Shown in pieces: positions 6,967 through 44,830 of a DNA stretch of 64,000 nucleotides. This DNA is from Christensenellaceae bacterium (lineage in GTDB: Bacteria > Bacillota > Clostridia > Christensenellales > Borkfalkiaceae), in assembly GCA_045589175.1 (NCBI GenBank), contig JAZNFS010000033.1, positions 90,734 to 154,733 on the forward strand, given 5' to 3'. The position numbers and the translations under genes are program-made. How positions within the stretch are numbered: position 1 is the stretch's first letter; every line of letters starts with the position of its first letter. Below the pieces are notes generated by a model. That model made no database searches and was not told the origin of the DNA. It saw nothing but the letters and a program-made list of their open reading frames with translations.

Positions 6967-9654
6967 TTAATTTTCGCCGTTTTCTTCGGTTGCTCTTTCT
7001 GTTACGCTTTCAACAGCAACGTCTTCAACAGCTACACCGTTTTCGGTTAAAACTTCTTCGCCCAAATCTTCTTTTTCTTCTTCAGCGTGAGGGACTACCG
7101 CAACGGTAACGACTCTGCCACCGTCAACCTTCATTACCTTAACGCCCTTAGTATCTCTACCGATTTTTGAAACGTCACAGGCAGGAGTTCTAATAACAAT
7201 ACCGTTATCGGCAATAAGCATAATATCTTGATCATCTTTAACGAGTTTTAAGCTTACAAGTCTGCCAGTTTTATCGTTAAATACGCCAGCCTTAATACCC
7301 TTACCTCCACGAGATTGTAAACGGTAATCTTCGATATCACTACGTTTACCAAAACCGTTTGCGCTTATAGTTAAAACGTCAAATTCTGGTTTAACAACAG
7401 TCATATCAACAAGCATATCGTCTTCGCTTATTAACATACAGCGAACGCCTTGAGTATCTCTACCCATAGCGCGAACGTCGTGTTCGCTAAATCTGATACA
7501 CTTACCTTCGTAAGAAGCGGCTAAAATTTCATCATCACCCGAAGAAACTTGAACTGAAATAAGTTCGTCGCCTTCGTTTAAGTTAATAGCAATCTTACCG
7601 TTCTTTCTAATGTTATCAAATTCGCTTACTGCCGTTTTCTTAATTAAACCGCGACGAGTTGCTAAAACGATATATTTCTTTCCATCAACGGCTACTTCGC
7701 TTTCACCGTTAACTTCTTTGCTTGTATTTTCTTCGCCTTCTGCTTCTACTTGAACTTCTTGATCTTCGCTTTCTACTGCTCCCGCATTTGTTTCGTTAAG
7801 AGGAATAATTGCAGAAACGTGTTCGCCTTCGGCAAGTGGCAATAGATTTACCATTGCTCTACCGCGTGCAGCCTTAAGCCCTTCTGGAATTTCATAGCCC
7901 ATAAGTCTATAAACTTTACCAAAGTTGGTAAACATTAATAAGCGGTCGTGCGTTGAAGAGATAAACATATCTTCAACAAAGTCTTCTTCTTTTGGCTTAT
8001 GACCGGTTACACCCCTGCCACCACGTTTTTGAGCGCGATATTCTTCCAAAGATAAACGCTTAATATATCCTAAGTGAGTAACGCTAATAACCACGTCTTC
8101 TTTCTTAACGAGGTCGGCAATGTCGATTTCAGAAAGGTCGTAAGAAAGTTCGGTTTTTCTTGGAGTTGGATATTTTTCTTTAAGTTCGATAAGTTCGTTT
8201 CTAACGATGGCAAGAACCCTTTCAGGTTTTTCTAAAATATCACGTAAATCAGCCATTAGTTCATCTAAAGCAGCGAGTTCGGCTTGTAATTTTTCAACTT
8301 CTAAAGAAGTTAAACGTTGTAAACGCATATCTAAAATAGCGTTTGCCTGCTTTTCAGAAAGTTCAAACGATGCAATTAAGTTTGCTTGCGCTTCTTGACG
8401 ATCGCGCGAGCGTTTAATTACTGCAATAACCTCATCAATAGAAGAAAGAGCAATAACTAAGCCTTTAACGATATGTTCTCGTTCTTCGGTTTTTGCAAGG
8501 TCGTATCTTGTTTTTCTTGTAACTACTTCAACTTGGTGCTTAACGTAAGCTTCAAGAATTTGTTTTAGGTTAAGAATTTTTGGTTCACCGTCAAGCAAAG
8601 CAAGCAAGGTAATACCGTTACTAACTTGAAGTTCGGTGTGCTTATAAAGCATATTTAATAAAACTTGTGGATTTGCATCCTTTTTAACGTCGATAACGAT
8701 TCTCATACCGTGACGATCTGATTCATCGTTAATATCTGCAATACCTTCAATTTTTTTATCTTTTACAAGCTCTACAATGTACTTAATAAGCTTTTCTTTA
8801 TTAACTTGGTAAGGAAGTTCGGTTACAACTATTCTGTGCCTTGTTCCGTTATTAAAGTCTTCAATTTCACATCTACTTCTTAAAATAACGCTACCACGAC
8901 CAGTGCGGTAAGCATTTTTTACGCCGGCTCTACCAAGTTGAATTGCCCCGGTTGGATAATCTGGTGCAGGAATATATTCCATTAATTCATCGATAGTTAT
9001 TTCAGGGTTTTCAATTAAAGCGATAGTGCCGTTTATAACTTCGGTTAAGTTATGAGGTGGAATATTAGTTGCCATACCAACGGCAATACCGTCCGACCCG
9101 TTAACTAAAAGGTTAGGGAATTTTGATGGTAATACGGTTGGTTGCATACGCGTATCATCGAAGTTAGGATAAAAATCAACCGTTTCTTTATCGATATCAC
9201 GAAGAAGTTCAACGGCAAGTTTACTCATTTTCGCTTCAGTATAACGGTATGCTGCCGGTGGATCACCGTCAACCGAACCAAAGTTTCCGTGCCCGTCAAC
9301 AAGTGGTAAGTTGGTTGAGAAATCTTGAGCGAGTCTTACGAGTGCGTCGTAAACCGAACTGTCGCCGTGTGGGTGATATTTACCAAGAACGTCACCAACG
9401 ATGGCAGCACATTTTTTATAACCCTTTTCAGGCGCTAAGCCCATTTCATTCATAGCGTAAAGTATTCTTCTATGAACCGGCTTTAACCCGTCGCGCACGT
9501 CGGGAATAGCACGCGAAACGTTAACCGCCATAGCGTACGCTATAAACGATTTTTTAAGTTCGTTATCAACTTCGATATTTATTATATTCGTTTGTGCAAG
9601 CGTTTGACGAAATTCTTCAGTCAATGCGCTATTCATTTCTTTTTTAGTTGCCAT
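6967..9654 (-). CDS. gyrA: DNA gyrase subunit A
   Basis: The active-site region [12 protein letters not shown] and the GyrA box are present. The C-terminal beta-pinwheel carries an acidic insertion and an acidic tail. Gene order is gyrB-gyrA. Confidence 0.95.
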
Positions 9655-24768: not shown

Positions 24769-25386
24769 CTATTCTTCATCATCGGAGTTGTCGATATCGT
24801 CATCAAACTCTTCTATATCATCATCGAGGTCATCTTCGCAATCATCATCCGCATAATCGATATCTTCTTTCGTTTCATCTTCATCAATAGGATCTTCTTC
24901 ATAGTCTTCTATATCGTCATCCTCATCAATCGAATCTTCTTCATCATCTGGAGAGTCAAACGATAAAACCACGTCGTTTTGCTTTGGTTTTCTAAATACG
25001 ATAAAGGTATCGTAAAGATATTCGGTTGCAAAGTTTATAATCATATTCATAACAACAACCACAGTATCATTCCAACCTATTTGCACTAAAGCGTCGCCCC
25101 ACCAAGTTGAAAGTGGTGTAAATACTAAATAGTAGCAAGCAACCAAGAACATTGCAAACGGAACGTTAACCGCGCTTTTAAAGGTAAATTTACGGTTGAA
25201 AGTAAAATTCCATAAAACCGAAAGCGCAAGCGAAATTACGTAAACCCACCAGTAATATTGTTCTGGAGTAAACCAAATACCGCAAAGTAGTGCCAAAAGC
25301 TCGTAAGAAACTATTTGAATTACACCTGCCGAAATTGAAAATGCAGTAAATTTTAAAATTTGAATAAATCTTTCCTTCTTTGTCAC
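24769..25386 (-). CDS. GtrA-family membrane protein with a poly-acidic C-terminal tail
   Basis: Four-TM GtrA-like core. The last ~65 aa are nearly all D/E. Apparent GTG start at 25386 with an AAGGA RBS. Confidence 0.6.
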   Translation of the reverse strand: MTKKERFIQILKFTAFSISAGVIQIVSYELLALLCGIWFTPEQYYWWVYVISLALSVLWNFTFNRKFTFKSAVNVPFAMFLVACYYLVFTPLSTWWGDALVQIGWNDTVVVVMNMIINFATEYLYDTFIVFRKPKQNDVVLSFDSPDDEEDSIDEDDDIEDYEEDPIDEDETKEDIDYADDDCEDDLDDDIEEFDDDIDNSDDEE

Positions 25387-25426
25387 TTTTATTTCCTTTT
25401 AACAATAAAAATTGAAGATTTTTTAT

Positions 25427-25452
25427 TAAAAACCACGCTATAACGCGATTAA
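25427..25452 (-). promoter_or_regulatory. Copy A of the conserved upstream motif (TAAAAACCACGCTATAACGCGATTAA), 5' of the GtrA-like gene
   Basis: 26/26-nt identity with copies at 26122 and 28612. It lies ~40 nt upstream of the start codon. Confidence 0.55.
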
Positions 25453-25489
25453 AGGCGCTTTCATATCCTTTTAAAAGGATTTAAAAGTT

Positions 25490-26092
25490 TTATTTTAGTT
25501 TAAGCCACATAGCAGGACGCACTGCAACGTTATTACTATATGCAATATCACCACGAGTATCTATTATACCTTCACCGTCAACAAGCGCTTCACGACGTTC
25601 ACCCACGCCGGGCGAACGAAGCCACCAAAAACACGCTTTAGTAGCCGTATTTTGGTAAGCGTTATTTTTCATTGCGTACATAGTTGGCTCGCTTTGTTTG
25701 GATTTATCCGTAGGTAAATATTCTTTTGCTTCCTTTACGCTAAAAACAAATAATTTATCCTCAGTTGTAGTTATAAAACCTAATAACGACTTTTCTTCTT
25801 CAGTTTTAGTTGTTTCAATCATTTCTTTTTCTTCTTGAGTAAAGGCGTTATTATAAAATTCACCGTTTAGCCAAGCCCTTAAAGTGCATTTTTTCCAACT
25901 TGTTTTTTCATATTTTTCGTGGTAAGGCTTACAATCAATGCCGTATTTGCTAATAACAAGCACCATATTATCATCTTTTTTAACCAACAACCACTCGATA
26001 GGTTCTTTGATTTTAGGGTTAGACTTAGTATAATTACCAAACTCAATACTATCTCCTCTTTTCATTTTTGCAACTTCTTCTTTTTTTAACAT
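25490..26092 (-). CDS. DUF6273-like single-domain protein
   Basis: Motifs IEWLLV, SKYGIDCKPY, CTLRAWLNGEFYNNAF, WWLRSPG and VRPAMWL. ATG 26092 follows a GGGAGAA RBS. Confidence 0.55.
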   Translation of the reverse strand: MLKKEEVAKMKRGDSIEFGNYTKSNPKIKEPIEWLLVKKDDNMVLVISKYGIDCKPYHEKYEKTSWKKCTLRAWLNGEFYNNAFTQEEKEMIETTKTEEEKSLLGFITTTEDKLFVFSVKEAKEYLPTDKSKQSEPTMYAMKNNAYQNTATKACFWWLRSPGVGERREALVDGEGIIDTRGDIAYSNNVAVRPAMWLKLK

Positions 26093-26121
26093 TTTCACGT
26101 TCTCCCGAATTTGTTTTCATC

Positions 26122-26149
26122 TAAAACCACGCTATAACGCGATTAACAG
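26122..26149 (-). promoter_or_regulatory. Copy B of the conserved upstream motif (TAAAACCACGCTATAACGCGATTAACAG)
   Basis: Lies ~30 nt upstream of the 25490-26092 gene. Confidence 0.55.
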
Positions 26150-26195
26150 CGGTTTTGCGTTTCTTGTACTTGTCGTTTGTTTTTTATTAAGTATT

Positions 26196-28580
26196 TTAAT
26201 CTAACGTAACCCACATTGCTGGGCGCACACAACGATTCGTAAGATTCACATTTTTACCACTATCCTTAACTTTGCCATCCGAATTTACATAACCAACGAA
26301 ATTTTGATTACTACCTGGTGTTCTAATCCACCACATACAATTTTCACCATCCACATATGCACCATTTTCCCTTGCAAAGGCGGTAGGTTTACATGCCCTT
26401 TCTTCATCAACTTCAAAATGTTCTTTTGCCCCTTTGAGGCTTAATAAAAACATTTTATCGTTAGTTGAATTCCCTGGGTTTCTATTATATAAAGGGTTTT
26501 TGTCCGCGCTTACATGCATTAATTGAATTTTTAACTGTTCTTCACTGTTAAATGCACTGTTTAAAAACTCATTATTTAGCCATTTTCTTAAAGTACAACG
26601 CTCCCATGTTATATTAGTATCTTGAGAATTGTATGGCTTGCAGTCAAGAGCATATTTACTAATAAGTAACACCTTATCTTCTTGTTTTTCAAGAAGTAAC
26701 CACTCGATATCTTCTTTTATGCTAGCATCACTTTGTGGGTATTTACCAAACTTTATATAGCCACCAACTTTTGCATCGTTAAAAGGATTTAAAACCGCCT
26801 TTAAGTTTGTTTTTTCGGCTTCTTGCTTATCTTGTTTAGTCACAGCATCAAGTTCAATCCATATTACCGGACGCACAGCCATGTCAGTATTATTAACAAT
26901 GCTACCACCATTATGTATATGCCCATCACTATGGACATAACTTGCATTACTTTGAAAATGACCAGGAGTACAAAGCCACCAATTAACATTGTTTCTAAAA
27001 TCAACACTTAAGCCGTTTTGTTTTGCATAAGCAGTAGGCTTACATATTCTTAATGTATCGCTATTAAAATGCTTATTTACATCAGATATCGTTAATAAAT
27101 TTACTTTATCTTCTGTTGGTTTTCCAGCCTTTGTTCCATAAACAGGATTGCATCCTGCAGATATTAAAACTGTTGATATTTTAGTTTTCTCATCTACTGA
27201 AAAGGCATTATTAAAAAATTCATTATTTAGCCATTTTCTTAAACTGCAATTTGCCCAAGTGATATCTTCAAATTTATCATGATATTGCTTGCAATCAAGA
27301 GCATATTTACTAATCAGTAAAGCCCCGCTACCTTGTTTATCAAGAACTAACCACTCGATATCTTCTTTTGTGCTGGCATCACTTTGTGGGTATTTACCAA
27401 ACTTTATATAGTCACCCACTTTTACATTATTTAAAGCATGTTGCTTATTTTTGCTAACGCTTGGCGCTCTTCGTGACTTTTCACTTATTAATGAATCATT
27501 TTGTTCAAGCTCTTTTTTAAAACGCTTTTGCTCTTCAATTTGTTTTTGAGAATCAAAATCTTCTTCAAAACAATCGTCTGCGCACATATATTTCATAATG
27601 CGCGCTTTTACGCCATCAATATCGTAGCAATATTCAAGCCCTGCAAAAATTTCGTTAACGATACCGTCTGCCATACTCTTTGTATCGTCGAGCCTTAACT
27701 GAATACGCGGTTTTTTATACTTACAATTTATTTTATCATAAGAAAGATTAGGGAATTTATATCGCAAATTTTCTAAATCGCTCTTTTTTAAATATGGCAA
27801 TTCGTGCTTTATTGCGTCGCACTTAAAATTGCGCGAATTTTTTGAAGAGATAAATAAAAAGATTTTACTGTTATCAATAGCCTTTTCAAGCGCTTGTTGA
27901 TAGTTATTAACCGCGCCAACACCGTGCTGTAGGTTACGCATTGCAACAAAGCAAGTTAACCCTTCTTCTTCAAGGGCGGTTACAATTTGTTGAACTTTAC
28001 CCATGTCGGCGCTTGAATACGCCACGAATACGTCACGCGGTAAATTAAGCTCGTAAACGCCTTCTTCAACAAGTTCGGCTTGAGTAGCAAAAGCGGTTGT
28101 TAGGCGATTATAGGTTTGTAAATCACTACCCTTATACGCCCTTTCAATTAGGTTATTAACGCATAGCAAATATTCACTTTTTAGCGATTTAATTAAAAAG
28201 TTAACGATAGGCTCAATAACTTCGTAATGCTCTTTTACGTTTATGTTATCAATAAAATCAATTACCGCTTGTTCGTATTGACCACAAACAACTTCGTAAA
28301 AGTTTGCTAAAAAATCTTCGGGATAAATATTTTTAATATTTAAACATATAGAAACTATTTTTTCGCTATCAATAAATTTTGCAGTTGCTTCTTGCCATAA
28401 ATGACGGCGAAGCGAATTTAACTGCTCTTGCTTTTGTTTATCTAAAAAACTATCAAGAAGCTCTTGTTGTTTTTTTGCGGTAACTTGCGCATAGGTAGAG
28501 CCACAGTTTTCACACTTGCAAATTTCTTCACTTATAGGCTGTAGCGTTCCACCACAGTTTTTACAAAATAACTCTTGCAT
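26196..28580 (-). CDS. Multi-domain protein: N-terminal zinc ribbon, helical domain, TIR-like domain and three DUF6273-like repeats
   Basis: N-terminal CKNCGG..CKCENCGS. The TIR-like block reads DVFVAYSSADMGKVQQIVTALEEEGLTCFVA...KIFLFISSKNS. Three repeats each carry the EWLVL / SKYALDCK / CSLRKWLNNEF / WWL(C/R)TPG / VRP(V/A)(I/M)W motifs. Confidence 0.6.
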   Translation of the reverse strand: MQELFCKNCGGTLQPISEEICKCENCGSTYAQVTAKKQQELLDSFLDKQKQEQLNSLRRHLWQEATAKFIDSEKIVSICLNIKNIYPEDFLANFYEVVCGQYEQAVIDFIDNINVKEHYEVIEPIVNFLIKSLKSEYLLCVNNLIERAYKGSDLQTYNRLTTAFATQAELVEEGVYELNLPRDVFVAYSSADMGKVQQIVTALEEEGLTCFVAMRNLQHGVGAVNNYQQALEKAIDNSKIFLFISSKNSRNFKCDAIKHELPYLKKSDLENLRYKFPNLSYDKINCKYKKPRIQLRLDDTKSMADGIVNEIFAGLEYCYDIDGVKARIMKYMCADDCFEEDFDSQKQIEEQKRFKKELEQNDSLISEKSRRAPSVSKNKQHALNNVKVGDYIKFGKYPQSDASTKEDIEWLVLDKQGSGALLISKYALDCKQYHDKFEDITWANCSLRKWLNNEFFNNAFSVDEKTKISTVLISAGCNPVYGTKAGKPTEDKVNLLTISDVNKHFNSDTLRICKPTAYAKQNGLSVDFRNNVNWWLCTPGHFQSNASYVHSDGHIHNGGSIVNNTDMAVRPVIWIELDAVTKQDKQEAEKTNLKAVLNPFNDAKVGGYIKFGKYPQSDASIKEDIEWLLLEKQEDKVLLISKYALDCKPYNSQDTNITWERCTLRKWLNNEFLNSAFNSEEQLKIQLMHVSADKNPLYNRNPGNSTNDKMFLLSLKGAKEHFEVDEERACKPTAFARENGAYVDGENCMWWIRTPGSNQNFVGYVNSDGKVKDSGKNVNLTNRCVRPAMWVTLD

Positions 28581-36139: not shown

Positions 36140-36184
36140 TTTAATAAAAAGAAATAAAAATAAATGTTTTTTTTGGAGGAAAAA

Positions 36185-38992
36185 ATGGCTAATTTTTTAA
36201 CAGGTCGTTGTCCTAATTGTGACAGCAAGTTAGAATATTCAAGCAATGACCAAGTGGTTGTTTGTAATGCTTGTGATAGTTCTATCAGCGTTGCTCAATT
36301 ACAAGGCAACAGCGGTGCAAGCGTAGCACCTGCAGCAGCAGCATTCAGTCCTATGATGATGTTAGGTTTTGATAACCCAGAATCAGGAGTTGTTTTCGTT
36401 GAAAACTTCTTTGAAAACTATGATTGGGCAGATTATCAAGATTCAACTGAAATCAAACTTTACGAAATCAACGAAGTTATTGAAAACAATAAAATCAAAA
36501 ACGGCGCTGATGCACATTCTTGGTACTTAGCATTCAAAGGTTTAGCAGTTCCAGTAAGCAAGAAAATTGAAGGCTTGGCATTAAAAGCTAAATACATGCA
36601 CGACCAATACAATAGCGACGATAACAGCGAAAGCTTTGCAGCGTTTGACGTTTATCGTAGAGTTGTTGAAACTTTAGTTGCTCAACAAGGCGCTATCGTT
36701 AAAGAATTAGAATCAGCTATCAAATACGCTGAAAAGTTTAACCTTTCTGCCGATAAATTAGCTGAAATCAATGCTGAATTAGATGGTTTAAAGTCTCAAC
36801 TTTCTGCTTTACACCCAGTTAAAGATATCAACGAAATTCCTGAATATCTTGAAGCTCAACGCGCAGCAGATGCAAAGCTTGAAAAAGAATTACACGAAAC
36901 TAAAGGTATTAACGCGCCTGCTCTTTACCAAGCAGCTGTTGAAAATTTCAATGCTGGTGGCGAAGCTAAGAGAGCAGCTTTAAGAAGCTTTACTGAAATT
37001 CGTGGTTATGCCGACAGTAATCGTTACATTGAAAGAATCAATCACTACTATAAATATTTTGACGGCGATTTATTCTTCTTCGGTGATAAATACTATTTAT
37101 TTAGAAGAGAAGCTGCCCCAGCTCCAACCTTTGACGTTAAGAACTTAGGCGACAGCATTAAGGGTAAATTAGGCAAGAAGGGTAAAAAAGAAGCTGCTCC
37201 AGCTCCAGCACCTGTTGCTCAACCAACAGAAGTTGTAAAAACTCTTTCTTTATACGAAGTTGTTGTTGATGAAAAGAGTGGTAAGCCTGTTAAAGCTGAT
37301 AAACCTGTTTTAAGAGGTATTGAACAAGTTATTAAATACTTCAACAACTGCCTATACTTCTTCAACAGCAAGGGTATTTGCAAATTTGATTTAATTGGTA
37401 AATCTGAAACAGTTGTTGATACTGGTAAGCTTGCTGACTACAAGGCTGGTGGTAAATATCAAACAAGATTAGTTCTTAACGAAACTCACCTTCTTGTTAA
37501 GAAAAAACTTCAACCTAAGAAAGCAGAAGAGGCAAAGAAAGGTTGCTTATCATTCTTACCATTCGGCAAGAAAGCACCTGCTGCTCCTGAAAAAACTTTC
37601 AATAACTACGAATTAATTCTTATCGACTTAATGAGTGGCGAAAAGAAAACGGCTGTTAGCGAATTAGTTGACGTTGCTCTTGCATACGATAAAGAAATTT
37701 TCTACGTAAAAGCAGAATCATTAATCAAACCAGCACCTGCTAAGAAAGGTTGCTTATCATTCTTACCATTTGGCAAGAAAGAAGAAGCTCCTAAGGGTCC
37801 AGAATTCAAAACAGAACTTATGTTCTGCAACTTAAAAACAGGCGCTTGCTCAAAGATTCTTAATGAAGATTGCCAAATCCACAACGTTGTTGACGGTAAG
37901 GTTGTTTACACTCATTGGGAACCTGTTAGCCTTAACCAAGATTTATACGTTTACGATATTGCAAGCGCTCAATCAACTCTTATCGAAAATAACATTTACA
38001 GTTACTTCGACGTTATCGGTGGTAAAGTTTACTACACTATCGGTAATAAGGACTTCCGCCCATTAGTTCGCGCTAACTTCGACGGTACTGATAGAAAAGA
38101 ACTTATGAGAAACGTTGAACGCGTTATTTCTGCTAAGGGTAACTGGTTATACCTTAAGAAAGGTTCTGGTAGAAACGCTGCTATTGTTAAATTTAACGTA
38201 GAAACTGGCAAACGCGTTGTAATTTGTACACAAGTTGATAGAATTCTTCGTGAAACTTCAACTCATATCCACTACGTTGACATTTATAACAACCTACGCG
38301 TTGTTCGTACAGATGGTAAGGAAAATAGACTTATTGCTGAAAACTTTGAAACATTCTTCATCGTTGGTAAAGATTGCATCTACTATGCTCGTAACGAAGC
38401 AGTTGATACAAATGCAAGCGGTTTATCACTTTACGTAATGGATCCAGACGGCAACAATTCAAGAAAGTTAGTATTCAACGTTGAATCTATTTCAGATTAC
38501 GATGAACAATACTTATACTACAAGAAGGTTGAAACCGTTCGCTTCAAAGTTACTAAAACTATCGGCAAAGGTCAAACTGAAGAATCATTTGAATCTCGTA
38601 AGTTAACAAGCTACTACAAGTACAATAAGGAAACTGGCAAGAGCGAAGAAGTATTACTTGTTGGTTGGCCAACCGGTAGCTCAACTTACCAAGAAAAGAC
38701 TGGTTGCTTAGCTAAATTCGGTATTGGTAAGACTAAAGACGTTAAGACCGATAACATATACGAAAGAATTCCTGCTAAGTGCAGATTTAAATACAGAGGT
38801 CTTGCTGCTGCCGGCGCTGTAGAAGCTGAACACGCTGCAGAAGAAGAAAAGAAGAACAATCCAGCACCTGCTGCTGGCGCACCTGCTAACGCTCCAGCTG
38901 CTCAAGGCGGAATTTTAGGTAAAATTACTTCTGCTTTAACTAACCTTAAAAACCGCGTTGTTGGATTCTTTAAAAAACTTTTCAAAAAATAA
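36185..38992 (+). CDS. Large zinc-ribbon / DUF5050 (beta-propeller-like) protein with an internal tandem repeat and a C-terminal amphipathic helix
   Basis: ATG 36185 follows a GGAGG RBS. N-terminal CPNCDS..CNACDS. KKGCLSFLPFGKK occurs twice. Propeller-like DG-x-VYYT repeats follow. Confidence 0.55.
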   Translation: MANFLTGRCPNCDSKLEYSSNDQVVVCNACDSSISVAQLQGNSGASVAPAAAAFSPMMMLGFDNPESGVVFVENFFENYDWADYQDSTEIKLYEINEVIENNKIKNGADAHSWYLAFKGLAVPVSKKIEGLALKAKYMHDQYNSDDNSESFAAFDVYRRVVETLVAQQGAIVKELESAIKYAEKFNLSADKLAEINAELDGLKSQLSALHPVKDINEIPEYLEAQRAADAKLEKELHETKGINAPALYQAAVENFNAGGEAKRAALRSFTEIRGYADSNRYIERINHYYKYFDGDLFFFGDKYYLFRREAAPAPTFDVKNLGDSIKGKLGKKGKKEAAPAPAPVAQPTEVVKTLSLYEVVVDEKSGKPVKADKPVLRGIEQVIKYFNNCLYFFNSKGICKFDLIGKSETVVDTGKLADYKAGGKYQTRLVLNETHLLVKKKLQPKKAEEAKKGCLSFLPFGKKAPAAPEKTFNNYELILIDLMSGEKKTAVSELVDVALAYDKEIFYVKAESLIKPAPAKKGCLSFLPFGKKEEAPKGPEFKTELMFCNLKTGACSKILNEDCQIHNVVDGKVVYTHWEPVSLNQDLYVYDIASAQSTLIENNIYSYFDVIGGKVYYTIGNKDFRPLVRANFDGTDRKELMRNVERVISAKGNWLYLKKGSGRNAAIVKFNVETGKRVVICTQVDRILRETSTHIHYVDIYNNLRVVRTDGKENRLIAENFETFFIVGKDCIYYARNEAVDTNASGLSLYVMDPDGNNSRKLVFNVESISDYDEQYLYYKKVETVRFKVTKTIGKGQTEESFESRKLTSYYKYNKETGKSEEVLLVGWPTGSSTYQEKTGCLAKFGIGKTKDVKTDNIYERIPAKCRFKYRGLAAAGAVEAEHAAEEEKKNNPAPAAGAPANAPAAQGGILGKITSALTNLKNRVVGFFKKLFKK

Positions 38993-39226: not shown

Positions 39227-40540
39227 ATGTTTGACAAAAGCCTTTTTAACAAACAAGAAAGTGTTGCCGTTGCCCTTTCGGGTGGGAAAGATTCGGTTTT
39301 CTTATTACACCTTCTTTATAAAAACGCCTTAGAGCTTGGCATCACTTTAAAAGCTATTAACGTTGAACACGGAATACGTGGCGAATCTTCCATTCGCGAT
39401 AGCGAGTTTGTAAAAGAGCTTTGCGCAAAACTCAACGTAGAACTTTTATGCTTTAGCGTAAACACTTTAGCGCACTGCAAAGAAAATGGCTATAGCGAAG
39501 AGCAGTCTGCACGCATTTTACGCTATGAATGCTTTAAAAAAGCAATAAGCGATGGGTTTTGTGATAAGGTTGCTACAGCCCACCACGCTAGCGACAACGC
39601 CGAAACGGTGCTTTTAAACCTATTTAGGGGAAGCGCTCTTTCTGGCGTTTCTGGCATTCCTAAAACCACCTTAAACGGCAAGATCGTGCGACCTATACTA
39701 AATACTTCAAAACAAACGATTGAAGAATATATTAAAAAAAATAATCTGCCTTTCGTTATTGACGAAAGCAATGAATCTAGCGATTATTCGCGAAATTTCA
39801 TAAGAAACTGTGTTTTACCGCAAATTGAAAAAAGGTTTGAAAGCGCAACCACCGCCATCAACCGCTTTTCTTCTATTGCCTTTGAAGAAAACCAACTACT
39901 TGACCAACTTGCGCAAAAACTAATTGAAAATAATAGTGTAATTATTCCCGAAAAAGAGCAGTTTGTTCTATTTAAGCGCGCTTGTTTAAAAATTATTAAG
40001 TCTATGGGTTTTGAAAAAGACTTTACTAAAACTCATCTCGACAATATTATTGATTTAACCAAAAAACAAACCGGAAGAAAAATAAATTTAAAATTTGGGC
40101 TTATCGCGCATAAAGTGTCGAATAGAATTGTATTTATAAAAAACGAAAAAATCGACGAAAATATTTATCAAATAACTTTTGATAAACCAATTGAAACCAA
40201 ACGTTATATAATCAATTTAGAAACAGTAAAAAAGCCTACAAAAGAGCAATTAACAAATGGCGAAGTTTTATATTTTGATAAAAACAAACTTCCCGAAAGC
40301 GCAATAATTCGCACGAAAAAAATAGGCGATGAAATATATACTTTCGGCAAAAAACAAATATCACTAAAAAAGTTTTTTACCGATAAAAAAATTGATAGCA
40401 CTACCAATAAACACTTACCCTTAATTGCTATTGAAAGCGAGATTTTTGCCGTTTGCACGGTTGATATTTCTCAAAAGTTAGCAGTGGATGAAAACACCAC
40501 TCAAATAATTAAACTTACCGCAAAGAAAAAAGGAGAGTAG
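39227..40540 (+). CDS. tilS: tRNA(Ile)-lysidine synthetase
   Basis: PP-loop SGGKDS. Followed by hpt as in Firmicutes. Confidence 0.9.
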   Translation: MFDKSLFNKQESVAVALSGGKDSVFLLHLLYKNALELGITLKAINVEHGIRGESSIRDSEFVKELCAKLNVELLCFSVNTLAHCKENGYSEEQSARILRYECFKKAISDGFCDKVATAHHASDNAETVLLNLFRGSALSGVSGIPKTTLNGKIVRPILNTSKQTIEEYIKKNNLPFVIDESNESSDYSRNFIRNCVLPQIEKRFESATTAINRFSSIAFEENQLLDQLAQKLIENNSVIIPEKEQFVLFKRACLKIIKSMGFEKDFTKTHLDNIIDLTKKQTGRKINLKFGLIAHKVSNRIVFIKNEKIDENIYQITFDKPIETKRYIINLETVKKPTKEQLTNGEVLYFDKNKLPESAIIRTKKIGDEIYTFGKKQISLKKFFTDKKIDSTTNKHLPLIAIESEIFAVCTVDISQKLAVDENTTQIIKLTAKKKGE

Positions 40541-40541
40541 C

Positions 40542-41078
40542 ATGTATAATCAACTTGAAAGAATTTTATTTTCTAAACAGCAACTTGAAAAACGAGTAAA
40601 AGAACTTGGCTCAACTTTAAGCGCCGATTATAAGGATAAAAATCCCCTGCTTATTTGCATTTTAAAAGGAAGCACACTTTTTTACGCAGATTTAGTTAGA
40701 GCGATGGATATCCACCTTAATTTCGACTTTATGGCAGTTAGCAGTTACGGTGCAGAAACTCGTTCTTCTGGCGAAGTTAAAATGATAAAAGACCTTGACT
40801 ATTCTATCGCCGACCGTCACGTTATTATAGTTGAAGATATAGTAGATACCGGTTTTACTTTAAAGTATTTAAAGAAACTGTTATGCGCTAGAAAGCCAGC
40901 ATCACTAAAAATATGCACTCTTTTAAATAAACCAAGCCGTAGAGAAGTTGATTTGATGCCTGACTACGTGGGATTTGAAGTTGGCAATCACTTCGTTGTT
41001 GGCTACGGACTTGATTACGATGAAAAGTTTAGAAATCTACCCGAGATAGGCGTTTTAAAAGAGGAAGTTTATAAATAA
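40542..41078 (+). CDS. hpt: Hypoxanthine phosphoribosyltransferase
   Basis: PRPP-binding motif VIIVEDIVDTGFTL. Confidence 0.9.
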   Translation: MYNQLERILFSKQQLEKRVKELGSTLSADYKDKNPLLICILKGSTLFYADLVRAMDIHLNFDFMAVSSYGAETRSSGEVKMIKDLDYSIADRHVIIVEDIVDTGFTLKYLKKLLCARKPASLKICTLLNKPSRREVDLMPDYVGFEVGNHFVVGYGLDYDEKFRNLPEIGVLKEEVYK

Positions 41079-41079
41079 A

Positions 41080-42015
41080 ATGTTTGATAATATACTTGAG
41101 CAAATTAAAAATCACGATACAATAATCATTCACCGCCACACCAAGCCCGACGGCGACGCACTCGGCTCGCAGATAGGCTTAAAGCACCTTATTAAACACA
41201 ATTTTCCCAACAAAAAAGTGTTTGTCGTTGGCGATATGACCGAGCGTTATTCCTTTATTAACGACTGTGTAATGGATGAAATTGACGATAGCGTATATAG
41301 CGATGCTCTCGCCTTTGTTTTAGACCTTTCTGCTCCACATTTGGTATCCGACGAAAGATATAAATTAGCAAAAACAACCGTTCGTATCGACCATCACCTT
41401 TTTATTGAAAAGTTTTGCGATATAGAAGTTACGGACAGTAGTTTTGAAAGTTGCGCAGGGCTTATTGCGTACTTTGCCAAGAGCTGTAATCTTGGTTTAA
41501 ACGCGCAAAGCGCAAGCGCGCTATATACGGGAATGGTAACCGATTCTGGCCGTTTTAGATATGATTCAACCACTTCACGAACCTTTGAAGTTGCATCTTT
41601 TTTATTAACCGTTCCTTTTTCGTTAACCGATATATACGTAAACCTTTACGCCGACGATTTTGAGTTTATAAAACTTCGCGCAAGCTTTATTTTAAAAATT
41701 AATTTTACAGATAAAAAGGTTGCATATATCTATACTACTAAAGAAGAAATGGCTAAGCTTAACAAAGATACTTTTACTATTTCACGCGGAATGGTTAATA
41801 CTATGTCCGATTTAAAGGGCGTTGACGTTTGGGTTAACTTTACCGAAACTGAAGATGCTGTTCTTTGCGAAATTCGCTCGTCAAAGTATAACATTAACCC
41901 CATTGCTGTTAAGTACGGCGGTGGCGGACACGCAAAAGCAAGCGGAGCAACCCTACCCAACAAACAAACCGCTATGGCGCTACTTAACGACTTAAACGAC
42001 TTAATTGTAGAATAA
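41080..42015 (+). CDS. nrnA: DHH-family bifunctional oligoribonuclease / pAp phosphatase
   Basis: DHH motifs HRHTKPDGDALGS and IDHH, plus the DHHA1 segment GGGHAKASGA. Confidence 0.8.
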   Translation: MFDNILEQIKNHDTIIIHRHTKPDGDALGSQIGLKHLIKHNFPNKKVFVVGDMTERYSFINDCVMDEIDDSVYSDALAFVLDLSAPHLVSDERYKLAKTTVRIDHHLFIEKFCDIEVTDSSFESCAGLIAYFAKSCNLGLNAQSASALYTGMVTDSGRFRYDSTTSRTFEVASFLLTVPFSLTDIYVNLYADDFEFIKLRASFILKINFTDKKVAYIYTTKEEMAKLNKDTFTISRGMVNTMSDLKGVDVWVNFTETEDAVLCEIRSSKYNINPIAVKYGGGGHAKASGATLPNKQTAMALLNDLNDLIVE

Positions 42016-42055
42016 ATAGCATGAGATGACTCGACTTGCGCGTAATCACAACGCA

Positions 42056-42103
42056 TTCTCCTTCCACCGCTAAAGCGGTCCCCCTTCCTCCCGGAGGACG
42101 GCT
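42056..42103 (+). repeat. GC-rich repeat, type B copy 1 (TTCTCCTTCCACCGCTAAAGCGGTCCCCCTTCCTCCCGGAGGACGGCT)
   Basis: Carries two short hairpins (ACCGC-TAAA-GCGGT and TCCTC-CCG-GAGGA). Near-identical copies lie at 42616 and 44721. Confidence 0.6.
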
Positions 42104-42161
42104 AATTTATATAAGCAAAATAAAAAAAAATATAGTTAATTAAAAAGGTTTTATATAAATA

Positions 42162-42539
42162 ATGTCGCTTGATTATAATAAAAAAAATATAACACTTGCA
42201 AAAAATTTACGCAAGAATGCAACGCCTCAAGAGAATCATTTATGGTATGACTTTTTATCAAAATATGATATTAGGTTTCAGCGACAAAAAGCAATAGATA
42301 ATTTTATTGCAGACTTTTATTGTCATAAAGCAAAACTTGTTATAGAAATTGACGGTTCGCAACATTATACCGAAAAGGGGAAAAGTCAAGACTTTTTTAG
42401 AACCGAGATTTTAGAGGAATATAATTTACAAGTTATACGATTTACAAACTTCGATATTGATTCCAACTTTCAGGGCGTATGCGAGTATATCGACAAAGTA
42501 GTAAAGCAAAATATTATAAACTATAAAAAGCGAATTTAA
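42162..42539 (+). CDS. DUF559 (Vsr-like endonuclease fold) protein
   Basis: Carries the ATPQENHLW..FQRQKAI.NFIADFYC..AKLVIEIDGSQH..VIRF pattern typical of the DUF559 family. Confidence 0.65.
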   Translation: MSLDYNKKNITLAKNLRKNATPQENHLWYDFLSKYDIRFQRQKAIDNFIADFYCHKAKLVIEIDGSQHYTEKGKSQDFFRTEILEEYNLQVIRFTNFDIDSNFQGVCEYIDKVVKQNIINYKKRI

Positions 42540-42542
42540 GTT

Positions 42543-42593
42543 AAGGCTCCTTCGGGGAGGGAGCTGGCGCGTATGAGACTGAGGGAGAATGCC
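42543..42593 (+). repeat. GC-rich repeat, type A copy 1 (AAGGCTCCTTCGGGGAGGGAGCTGGCG...GAGGGAGAATGCC)
   Basis: GCUCC-UUCGGGGAG-GGAGC hairpin containing a UUCG loop. Second copy at 42707. Confidence 0.55.
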
Positions 42594-42615
42594 CTTTACG
42601 TGCTTTTAATTTTTT

Positions 42616-42667
42616 CGCTTTCTCCTTCCACCGCTGAAGCGGTCCCCCTTCCTCCCGGAGGACGGCT
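42616..42667 (+). repeat. GC-rich repeat, type B copy 2
   Basis: 50/52-nt identity with copies 1 and 3. Confidence 0.6.
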
Positions 42668-42706
42668 TGGAAAATTTTGCTTAGACTTACATTATTAGTA
42701 TAAAAT

Positions 42707-42757
42707 AGGCTCCTTCGGGGAGGGAGCTGGCGTGCAAACGCCTGAGGGAGAGTGCCA
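42707..42757 (+). repeat. GC-rich repeat, type A copy 2
   Basis: Near-identical to 42543-42593 over the first 27 nt and the last 13 nt. Confidence 0.55.
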
Positions 42758-42845
42758 TTTTGCTTTTAAACGCGTTTTAAAATAGAAAAAGTTAAAAAAC
42801 AAAAACGGCTTTGTAATAATACCAAAGTCCAAAAAGGTATAAAAT

Positions 42846-43829
42846 ATGAACGAACAAATAATGCAAAGCATTTTGCAAAAAATTAAAGATTACCAAAGTA
42901 TAATGATATTCCGCCATATTCGTATGGATGGTGACTGTACTGGCGCAACAAAGGGCTTTAAGGATATTTTAACCGCATCTTTTCCCGAAAAAGACGTTTA
43001 TTTAATTGACCCAAGCCAAAGTAGCGAATTTTTAGCCTTTTTAGGTAGCGATGATGAAGACGTAAGCGACGAAATTTATGCAAAATCGCTTGCTATAGTT
43101 TTAGATACCGCTTCGCTTGACAGAATTTCTAATAAAAAATACGCCCTTTGCAAAGAGATTATAAAAATAGACCACCATATCAATATCACGCCCTACGGTG
43201 ATTTAAGTTGGGTTGAAGAAGAGCGCTCTTCTACTTGCGAAATGATAACTCATTTTTACAAAACCTTTAAAGATGAGCTTAAAATAACTAAAGAGGGAGC
43301 AAAATATCTTTTCACAGGTATGGTAACCGATTCTGGCCGTTTTAGATATCGTGAAGTTTCGGGCGAAACCATGCGACTTGCCGGCTTTTTATTAGATACG
43401 GGCATCGATACCGATACACTTTACGCACACCTTTATATGCAAACTAAAGAAAGTATGATTTATAAAGGCTATATTTTAAAAAATATGAAGGTAACCGAAA
43501 ACGGCGTTGCTTACTTTTACGTATCAAACAAAACTCAAGAAAAACTTGGTTTATCGCGCGAAGATGCAAGCGCCGGTGTTTCAGCTCTTGAAAATATTGA
43601 AAACTGCTTGATTTGGATTGCTTTTATTGAAAACGAAGATAAATCAATCCGTGTGCGCCTACGCTCACGCTTTATAACTGTTAACGATATAGCCGAAAAA
43701 TATCACGGTGGTGGGCATTCTTGCGCGAGTGGAGCAACCGTTTATAGCAAAAAAGAACTAAAAGCCTTAATTGACGACGCTGACGCTAAACTAAAAGAAT
43801 ATAAAGAAAATAACGAGGGCTGGCTATGA
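42846..43829 (+). CDS. Second DHH-family phosphoesterase (NrnA paralog)
   Basis: DHH motifs FRHIRMDGDCTG and IDHH, plus GGGHSCASGA. Shares TGMVTDSGRFRY with the upstream nrnA. Confidence 0.75.
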   Translation: MNEQIMQSILQKIKDYQSIMIFRHIRMDGDCTGATKGFKDILTASFPEKDVYLIDPSQSSEFLAFLGSDDEDVSDEIYAKSLAIVLDTASLDRISNKKYALCKEIIKIDHHINITPYGDLSWVEEERSSTCEMITHFYKTFKDELKITKEGAKYLFTGMVTDSGRFRYREVSGETMRLAGFLLDTGIDTDTLYAHLYMQTKESMIYKGYILKNMKVTENGVAYFYVSNKTQEKLGLSREDASAGVSALENIENCLIWIAFIENEDKSIRVRLRSRFITVNDIAEKYHGGGHSCASGATVYSKKELKALIDDADAKLKEYKENNEGWL

Positions 43830-44551
43830 GAATACTTATAACCAACGACGACGGTATAAACGCTCCCGCGCTTAAACCGCTTGCTAAGTGGGCTAAAAAA
43901 CACGGCGAAGTTACTGTGGTTGCTCCAAAGGTTGAACAAAGCGGAAAGAGTCACGGCATTGAAATTATAAAGGCAATGGAAATTAAAAAGGTTGAATTTA
44001 CTAGTGGCATTGAAGCTTATTCGGTTGATTCTACCCCTGCCGATTGCGTAAGATTTGGTATTATCGGGCTTAAGCGCGATTACGATTTGGTTATTTCGGG
44101 CATAAATCGCGGATATAATTTAGGCAAAGATATTGTTTATTCGGGTACTATTGGCGCAATTTTTGAGGCAAGCGGACTTGGTATTAAATCGGTGGCGCTT
44201 TCTACCGCACCCGATAGTTTAGATAATGCTCTTTCACTTTTAGATGAAGTTTATGAGTTTTTTGTTTACAATAAATTGCTTGATAAAAACCCAATTTATA
44301 ACGTAAACTTACCAAGTTTAAAATGTAAAGGAATTAAAATTACTAAAACCGGTGGCGGTTATTATTCTGATGATTTTAAAGAAGTTTCGCCTAATATGTT
44401 CGTCCAAGTTGGAAAAATGATTTGGGATGATAAAAACGATATGAATATTGATACCGATGCCACAATGCACGGTTACGTATCGATTACTCCCCTTTCTAGT
44501 GAACGCACTGAAATTAGAGTGTATAACGAGCTAAAAGTTTTAAACGATTAA
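43826..44551 (+). CDS. surE: 5'/3'-nucleotidase SurE
   Basis: MRILITNDDGINAPAL signature. Confidence 0.9.
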   Translation: MRILITNDDGINAPALKPLAKWAKKHGEVTVVAPKVEQSGKSHGIEIIKAMEIKKVEFTSGIEAYSVDSTPADCVRFGIIGLKRDYDLVISGINRGYNLGKDIVYSGTIGAIFEASGLGIKSVALSTAPDSLDNALSLLDEVYEFFVYNKLLDKNPIYNVNLPSLKCKGIKITKTGGGYYSDDFKEVSPNMFVQVGKMIWDDKNDMNIDTDATMHGYVSITPLSSERTEIRVYNELKVLND

Positions 44552-44720
44552 TCTCTTTTAATTAAATATTATAGCACGGTAGAATATCGTTATGGTCAAA
44601 TGATAAACTACCGTGCTTTTTTATTGTTTTGGTTGTTATATTTTTTTTGAGACCTTTCGACTGACGCTCAAGGTGACATTACAATGCTCAACATGACAAA
44701 AGAAAAAGCGCGGTGTATAA

Positions 44721-44772
44721 CGCTTTCTCCTTCCACCGCTAAAGCGGTCCCCCTTCCTCCCAGAGGACGGCT
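44721..44772 (+). repeat. GC-rich repeat, type B copy 3 (followed by TTTTTT)
   Basis: CGCTTTCTCCTTCCACCGCTAAAGCGGTCCCCCTTCCTCCCAGAGGACGGCT. Confidence 0.6.
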
Positions 44773-44797
44773 TTTTTGGGGGTGGCATTATAAAAGA

Positions 44798-44830
44798 AAA
44801 AAGCAAGTGCGGTTGGGCACTTGCTTTTTG
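44798..44830. terminator. Bidirectional intrinsic terminator
   Basis: AGCAAGTGCGGTTGGGCACTTGCT flanked by A- and T-runs. Confidence 0.6.

Follow-up and report, generated by a model that had tools for sequence, protein, structure and literature searches.

The repeats known as BoxC, PIT or TMECO, reportedly also described by Bachellier in 1999 and by Hoyne in 2000, are the closest described counterparts of the GC-rich modules treated here, which surround a gene for a predicted DUF559 nuclease in a 64-kb stretch of one contig of a Christensenellaceae bacterium (JAZNFS010000033.1; hereafter the window, which module counts for the source genome cover). Known since the 1990s, with thousands of copies in hundreds of genomes, BoxC/PIT/TMECO repeats mark hypervariable loci, have the consensus CCCTCNCCC-N3-6-GGGNGAGGG-N3-GGGNGAGGG and were counted, as TMECO, 3,610 times in 262 genomes and 23 times in E. 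coli K-12 (PMC4666352). TMECOs come in inverted pairs in which type A always occurs with type B, their motif forms a triplex in vitro and their loci are hypervariable between strains; no mobility gene or transposase was found nearby, the mechanism of instability was called 'unclear', and ycjD, the DUF559 homologue of E. coli, is mentioned by Holder et al. only in a supplementary table, as one of the flanking genes (PMC4666352). DUF559 itself is a large, uncharacterised nuclease family. In the window, gene and modules form what appears to be a selfish cassette splitting a conserved nucleotide-metabolism operon, and the two were found together in bacteria as far apart as gut Clostridia and E. 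coli, a hint as to which enzyme works on these long-unexplained repeats. A literature search found no paper linking DUF559 to BoxC/PIT/TMECO repeats; the module class is known and the protein family is known.

Like BoxC/PIT/TMECO repeats, the modules are GC-rich, intergenic and roughly 35-50 nt long (in the window about 48 nt, with 61-66% GC against 35.5% for the window as a whole), are built of a pyrimidine arm, the purine arm complementary to it and a third block that is a mirror repeat (the modules B1 and B2 following the strict Y-R-R pattern; Y, pyrimidine; R, purine), occur as two types paired in inverted orientation, and vary in copy number and arrangement between close strains. They differ in that the Clostridial blocks read CTCCCTC/GAGGGAG in place of CCCTCNCCC/GGGNGAGGG, with the published consensus not matched, in that a covarying variable hairpin of 14-40 nt takes the place of the 3-nt second loop, and in that the window modules are low-copy and clustered round one gene in a 35% GC Firmicute. 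Judged by sequence, the modules are probably Clostridial versions of BoxC/PIT/TMECO repeats, with a triplex potential predicted from their layout.

With REP/REPIN-RAYT systems the locus shares a single-copy nuclease-type gene flanked by inverted, short, structured GC-rich repeats, inverted doublets and BIME-like alternating arrays, and, in Proteobacteria, (triplex-type) repeats also dispersed away from the gene. In contrast to these systems, the window enzyme has a predicted PD-(D/E)XK Vsr fold where RAYT is an HUH Y1 transposase, its repeats are of the triplex type and not GTAG-tagged palindromes, five copies lie within 2.8 kb and none elsewhere in the 64 kb, without dispersal, and the DUF559 gene looks horizontally mobile whereas RAYTs are mostly vertical. 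Homing endonucleases of the EDxHD type (I-Bth0305I; PMC3239194) likewise combine a Vsr-related fold with a selfish gene, and the window shares with homing endonuclease genes the filled and empty alleles of one site and a gene younger than its flanks, as homing with co-conversion predicts; unlike I-Bth0305I, the window protein is 125 aa long without the N-terminal NUMOD-type DNA-binding region, is embedded in repeats and is associated with neither intron nor intein. Vsr and Caulobacter VsrA belong to the same PD-(D/E)XK Vsr-like superfamily, and nicking at T:G mismatches, as by Vsr, would suit the many modules whose purine strand has a T-G mismatch in the stem; the window gene is unlike Vsr in that it has no adjacent cytosine methyltransferase and is assigned by Pfam to DUF559, not Vsr. 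Insertion sequences (IS) and miniature inverted-repeat transposable elements (MITEs) differ from the window cassette, which has neither a transposase nor a short, fixed target-site duplication.

Pairing of DUF559 genes with repeat modules

Modules were searched with a covariance model (R1) built from the same family that it then searched, and its E-values are rough; an nhmmer profile of the module misses the A subtype and served for rough layouts only. Run unfiltered over all 64 kb of the window, R1 returned exactly five modules and nothing else, and the core motif matched six times against 0.14 expected. Across loci, R1 found 243 modules in 378 kb around DUF559 genes, whereas control loci from 55 related species, 430 kb in all, gave none. 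DUF559 homologues sit in unrelated genomic contexts, and modules are present at 76 of the 80 metagenome DUF559 loci, 28 of which are one human-gut element that inflates the counts. Within 250 nt of the open reading frame (ORF), modules number 12.7 per kb on the upstream side and 7.2 per kb on the downstream side, falling to at most 0.2 per kb beyond 500 nt; the commonest cassette layout is doublet-gene-doublet.

The pairing extends to distant homologues (31-50% identity), where BoxC-like modules flank all nine genes inspected, those of Azospirillum, Sinorhizobium, Sphingomonas, Deinococcus, Synechocystis, Pseudanabaena, Photobacterium, E. coli (ycjD) and a gut contig. In 50-kb stretches searched with a generic triplex finder, two of six modules abut the ORF in Deinococcus, three of seven lie at most 400 nt from it in Sinorhizobium, and a 12-copy array begins 190 nt after it in Photobacterium; in E. 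coli, three BoxC-like modules follow ycjD (L165, 1010-1270), and the Synechocystis homologue adjoins the BREX gene pglX. The chromid of Photobacterium sp. GJ3 (L170) carries alternating-orientation arrays of 12 and 13 modules at 25361-26652 and 43648-44778.

The strict pattern of module subtype S1 (defined below) was also searched in viral contigs, which may include host fragments, and returned 90 loci (828 kb), where the modules neighbour ordinary phage genes; a protein-based scan of viral contigs found no close relatives. Some phage contigs from IMG/VR (L174, L204 and others) hold 7-11 canonical S1 modules, clustered in the intergenic stretches that separate structural genes and with no DUF559 close by. 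The repeats thus spread in phage genomes too, where, with no gene in cis, they are maintained and apparently amplified, like BoxC in E. coli. The gene-repeat pairing is general and cross-phylum but asymmetric: the gene is almost always accompanied by modules, and the reverse does not hold.

The window ORF is intact and matches DUF559 with 95.1 bits (cut-off 20.6), covering profile positions 3-108 of 109; the only other Pfam hit was a sub-threshold DUF2726 match, and the Vsr family PF03852 was not matched. The protein also matches PDB entry 3HRL, an 'endonuclease-like protein' of N. gonorrhoeae (E 5.5e-9), with which the predicted catalytic core D...E-x-D-G-x-Q-H was aligned, its residues D51, E62, D64, G65, Q67 and H68 being invariant among 22 homologues. 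More than 7,800 relatives were found at E < 1e-5, and the best 120 are about 75-100% identical and mostly lie on very short contigs. The DUF559 ORFs have 30-39% GC where host GC is 36-57%, and homologues with 76-90% aa identity encode 39-57% of their identical residues by different codons; the gene is shown by these figures to be of foreign base composition and under purifying selection, its amino acids being kept despite synonymous change. C-termini are variable ('...SLREGGG'), the ORF tails often continuing into a module. One homologue, P0037, diverges from the window protein in its N-terminal 45 residues and is identical to it in the remainder, so that by sequence it looks like a recombinant of two DUF559 genes.

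The modules A and B of the window belong to one family, with the reverse complement of B aligning to A over 28 invariant columns. Two subtypes are distinguished, S1 (B in the window) and S2 (A in the window, reading CTCCTTCC ... CCTTCCTC-CCG-GAGGAAGG), which alternate in opposite orientation in the window and at most other loci, with distinct head-to-head and tail-to-tail spacers. The cross-locus module reads NN-CTCCCTC-AG-(variable 5-9-bp hairpin)-CAG-CTCCCTC-NNN-GAGGGAG-CC. Over 101 distinct modules, 94.4% of the stem cells are paired (83% when shuffled, 45-58% with a slid partner), two-sided changes of pairs amount to 140 cells against 39 in shuffles, and the third (5') block mirrors the pyrimidine arm in 98.6% of cells; the single position that varies changes in all three blocks together (72 modules with T,T,A, 18 with C,C,A and 10 with C,C,G). 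G-T wobbles account for 6 of about 1400 stem cells and C-A on the module strand, equivalent to T-G on the purine-rich strand, is the most frequent mismatch, which points to a Watson-Crick DNA structure rather than RNA. No Rfam family was matched at gathering or E-value thresholds; taken with the scarcity of G-U pairs, this speaks against an RNA element of known or typical kind. The alignments suggest that the module structure is under selection and DNA-like.

In the window, module A1 is composed of the 5' block CTCCTTCC, the hairpin ACCGC-TAAA-GCGGT and the hairpin CCTTCCTC-CCG-GAGGACGG; the 5' block of the A modules is the exact mirror of the pyrimidine arm CCTTCCTC, not its direct repeat, and as single-stranded DNA A1 is predicted to form two hairpins. 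The DUF559 ORF lies between the inverted copies A1(+) and B1(-), A2 is a direct repeat of A1 at a distance of 564 nt (96% identical), and the tandem module period is 163 nt. The single-stranded DNA fold of B2 has a z of -2.5, and for A2, spacer and B2 together one long composite hairpin is predicted (z = -2.2). The solitary A3, orthologous to a copy at 8855-8907 of locus L001, is followed by a T run and has a terminator-like score. An interpretation of the A2-B2 spacer as an internally deleted, MITE-like copy of the gene was rejected, as its short matches to the gene start and leader are not colinear either way.

Insertion, exchange and traces of movement

A preliminary description of the stretch, made from its letters alone, had proposed the order tilS-hpt-DHH-DUF559-DHH-surE with an 830-nt insert and a second, divergent DHH phosphoesterase. 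Gene calls and Pfam bear out this order, the two DHH proteins (DHH#1 and DHH#2) are 33% identical, and the elements are indeed GC-rich in an AT-rich background. Its five copies flanking the gene need adjustment: modules do flank the gene, four of them sharing the 830-nt interval from DHH#1 to DHH#2 with it, and the fifth lies beyond surE. A and B, taken there for two elements, belong together as oppositely oriented subtypes of a single family; this unity, the BoxC/PIT class of triplex repeats and the cross-phylum pairing had been missed.

Empty sites were sought in one genome per GTDB species with DHH#2, which yielded 56 loci. At 51 of these both DHH genes are complete and spaced by -17 to +122 nt (median about 1 nt), at two more they are adjacent with DHH#1 truncated, which brings the species with adjacent DHH genes to 53, and only L020 has a DUF559 gene between them. 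L020 is the window's own species ('Clostridia bacterium' RGIG6167, sheep rectum; 95% identity). Exact matches to the hpt, DHH#1 and DHH#2 proteins of the window were looked for and none was on record, so that its source genome is not part of the collection searched. The nearest metagenome relatives are empty and module-free (DHH#2 aa identity 85% for L261, 75% for L262 and 71% for L263 and L264), and the 55-nt spacer of the L261 empty site resembles window positions 42763-42845, so that the inserted DNA would span about 42016-42762, immediately following the stop codon of DHH#1. The islet is firmly established as a lineage-specific insertion of about 745 nt that splits an otherwise conserved DHH-DHH-surE operon. 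The small mobile or selfish insertion of the preliminary description is supported by the empty sites, the polymorphism and the young age of the cassette; as signs against it, that description had named an islet invariant among relatives and elements absent elsewhere, and what was found are three layouts in three lineages, and modules in many genomes beside DUF559 homologues and in phage contigs.

The layout is A-gene-B-A-B in the window, B-A-B-A-gene-B-A in L001 and L020, and gene-B-A in L156, where the ORF starts only 24 nt past DHH#1. Compared with each other, the three define a conserved core of the ORF and its 3' head-to-head module pair, the other copies being lineage-specific gains or losses; the B1/A2 spacer of the window is of the same type as that between B and A copies in L001. 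Beyond surE, L001 has a Bro-N/Fic gene and three additional modules (A-B-A) at 7310-8850, between surE and the A3 orthologue, where the window has only about 170 nt (44552-44723), so that a second accessory gene is repeat-bracketed and present or absent by lineage.

Between the window and L001, the DUF559 proteins are 100% and their genes 99.2% identical, with synonymous differences in 3 of 123 codons (2.4%), against 24-30% synonymous differences in hpt, DHH#1, DHH#2 and surE (Fisher p = 2e-12 for third positions). Against L156, the synonymous differences of the window are 16-18% for DUF559 and 34-39% for the flanks. Leader and A1 are 95% identical to L001, where the upstream flanking genes are 82-88% identical, and the final 60 nt before DHH#2 are 98% identical. 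The low divergence of DUF559 against the high divergence of its flanks indicates that the cassette was exchanged between lineages long after their split; a recently exchanged cassette of a DUF559 gene and BoxC/PIT-type modules in a conserved DHH-DHH-surE operon is a firm conclusion.

Traces of integration were found at other loci. In L018, 41 nt of the 3' end of the upstream gene occur twice, flanking the cassette, and in L128, L131 and L132 about 125 nt of the 5' end of hsdR, including ribosome-binding site and ATG, are duplicated on both sides with hsdR left intact. Such long, variable duplications are compatible with integration by homologous recombination (single crossover of a circular intermediate, or break repair from a donor allele), not by a transposase. 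None of about 170 loci inspected has a transposase, and the window site has no target-site duplication. In L128, the duplicated copies lie at 2226-2350 and 2846-2970 in a type I restriction-modification (R-M) operon from human gut (also L131, L132 and L136), with the module doublet and DUF559 within the duplication and the DUF559 stop codon overlapping the restored hsdR start; many other DUF559 homologues sit between hsdS and hsdR. An analogy of the modules to integron attC sites was rejected, since no integrase is present and the core sites are not alike.

Mechanism and competing explanations

The reading we prefer, at about even confidence, is that of a selfish cassette mobilised by recombination, in which the DUF559 nuclease acts on the modules and the resulting breaks drive module turnover and a homing-like spread. 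The nuclease would recognise and nick non-B structures of the modules (hairpin, cruciform or triplex), and the resulting breaks would promote homologous recombination, both among the module copies and through short homologous flanks. This could lead to local amplification or loss of modules, to inversions between opposite copies, to excision and re-integration of the gene (the direct repeats A1 and A2, at their 96% identity, could excise it) and to homing-like replacement of the locus between related genomes. By analogy, such a cassette would follow a logic like that of REP/RAYT or of free-standing homing endonuclease genes. If the pairing reflects function, two orphan phenomena, DUF559 and the triplex repeats, would explain each other, and a second nuclease-repeat partnership, mechanistically distinct and built from different parts, would stand beside REP/RAYT. 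Among the predicted targets of programmed inversion, DUF559 proteins are 14-fold enriched (PMC9881135); their flagging as such targets would then be explained by inverted modules overlapping the ORF ends.

A wider claim, that nucleases of the DUF559/YcjD family are the missing partner enzymes of BoxC/PIT/TMECO repeats throughout Bacteria and that their nicking drives repeat spread, hypervariability and their own transfer, is put forward tentatively and could easily prove wrong. ycjD is found in 3,378 of 5,426 complete E. coli genomes. Phylogroups A, B1 and C, as well as ST69 and ST182, carry it at the fabI-sapF site, which elsewhere holds eefRABCD (PMC12817139); TMECO counts in the supplement of Holder et al. 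are 13-30 for A/B1/C strains and 1-2 for B2 strains, which lack ycjD and have eefRABCD there, with 6-7 for F, 10-11 for E and 13-15 for D (PMC4666352). These counts fit a scheme in which the repeats proliferate where the gene is present, the number of independent contrasts being small. E. coli K-12, with ycjD and 23 TMECOs, allows the hypothesis to be tested directly.

Several points weigh against the preferred reading. The cutting of module structures by DUF559 proteins is a step that we infer, and the AlphaFold2 model (22-sequence alignment; mean predicted local distance difference test score 68.9) is unlike a nuclease core and too poor for a three-dimensional look at the active site. The window modules are few and local: all five fall within 2.8 kb and the remaining 61 kb has none, a pattern unlike that of REP repeats spread over a whole genome. 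The low synonymous divergence could also stem from ordinary homologous replacement at this locus. None of the 90 phage-contig module loci (828 kb) encodes DUF559, and the metagenome counts carry the inflation noted above. The E. coli correlation is confounded by phylogeny, and phylogroup E is without ycjD yet has 10-11 TMECOs.

The phage loci favour the main rival explanation, which we find possible if on the whole doubtful, namely that triplex-type modules are intrinsically unstable and act as insertion hot spots, with DUF559, like Fic, as a frequent cargo that functions in Vsr-like mismatch repair or R-M. Modules also flank the Bro-N/Fic gene in L001 and a 257-aa ORF in L145, many DUF559 homologues reside inside type I R-M or BREX loci, a Caulobacter DUF559 protein has been proposed to be a Vsr-type repair enzyme (PMC12907096), and Holder et al. 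blame the triplex motif itself for instability (PMC4666352). What a passenger role leaves unexplained is the near-universal flanking in the clade and at nine of nine distant homologues, against 0 modules in the 430-kb control, and the peak of module density within 250 nt of the ORF. Nor does it account for the setting of the window gene, which has no methyltransferase or R-M gene beside it, its neighbours being tilS, hpt, the two DHH genes, surE and genes for large surface-type proteins; linkage to a Dcm-type cytosine methyltransferase is absent among these neighbours.

That the modules overlap the ORF ends, occupy the 5' and 3' untranslated regions and have covarying stems, with A3 terminator-like and followed by its T run, could also be taken to mean that they are transcribed cis-elements of the DUF559 transcript (terminators, insulators or mRNA stabilisers). 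We consider this very unlikely, as both orientations occur in one array, G-U is nearly absent (6 of about 1400 cells) with an excess of C-A mismatches on the module strand, no T-tracts follow A1, A2, B1 or B2, Rfam gave no matches, and PIT elements were without promoter or terminator activity in E. coli (cited in PMC4666352). The inverted modules bracketing the gene (A1 +, B1 -) and the resemblance of the doublets to MITEs or REPINs would suit a classical transposon or MITE with the modules as terminal inverted repeats, DUF559 as cargo and a transposase encoded elsewhere. This we hold to be the least probable explanation: the roughly 170 loci inspected lack a transposase, Holder et al. found none near TMECOs (PMC4666352), host duplications of 41-125 nt stand in place of short target-site duplications of fixed length, and the layouts vary (gene-modules, modules-gene or both).

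Features of the locus and neighbouring genes

Coordinates of the features are given in Table 1. A truncated extra module at the position of the junction segment was considered and rejected, its similarity to a B module not being significant (p about 0.05).

Table 1. Features of the DUF559 locus and its surroundings in the window
Feature	Position	Strand	Evidence or remark
942-aa ORF upstream of tilS	36164-38992		
tilS	39227-40540	+	
hpt	40542-41078	+	
DHH/DHHA1 phosphoesterase #1 (NrnA-like), left flank	41080-42015	+	Pfam DHH E 2.3e-12, DHHA1 E 4.6e-11
Junction segment, DHH#1 stop to first module	42016-42054	.	absent from L261 empty site
Module A1 (subtype S2)	42055-42103	+	covariance model 15.1 bits
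AT-rich DUF559 leader	42104-42161	+	
DUF559 (Vsr-like PD-(D/E)XK) predicted nuclease gene, 125 aa	42162-42539	+	Pfam PF04480 E 3e-27
Module B1 (subtype S1), variable hairpin degraded	42544-42590	-	covariance model 47.3 bits, E 4.7e-9; strict Y-R-R pattern
Head-to-head spacer B1/A2	42591-42618	.	
Module A2 (subtype S2)	42619-42667	+	covariance model
Tail-to-tail spacer A2/B2	42668-42706	.	
Module B2 (subtype S1), best-preserved	42707-42753	-	covariance model 58.4 bits, E 1.5e-11; strict Y-R-R pattern
Probable remnant of native DHH#1-DHH#2 spacer, with promoter-like site (42792-42820) before DHH#2	42754-42845	+	
DHH/DHHA1 phosphoesterase #2 (NrnA-like), right flank	42846-43829	+	Pfam, NCBIfam
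surE	43826-44551	+	overlaps DHH#2 end
Module A3, solitary, downstream of surE	44724-44772	+	covariance model 16 bits
Bidirectional terminator-like hairpin	44798-44829		13-bp stem
Convergent surface-protein gene, 1483 aa	44870-49321	-	

Both DHH proteins match the NCBIfam model of NrnA below its equivalog cut-off (DHH#1 with 240 bits, the cut-off being 350). The tandem of DHH genes with overlapping surE is kept in more than 50 species (Clostridia, Bacilli-like and Spirochaete-labelled metagenome-assembled genomes; loci L021-L075). The two genes mostly overlap or sit a few nt apart, which suggests that the tandem NrnA-like DHH/DHHA1 paralogues are a co-translated pair, possibly a heteromer.

The 942-aa ORF upstream of tilS encodes two copies of a KKGCLSFLPFGKK motif and, in its N-terminal part, a CxxC pair like that of a zinc ribbon; in related contigs, Pfam gave no more than a faint beta-propeller hint for it. 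Downstream, the terminator-like hairpin is situated between module A3 and the convergent gene for the large surface protein.

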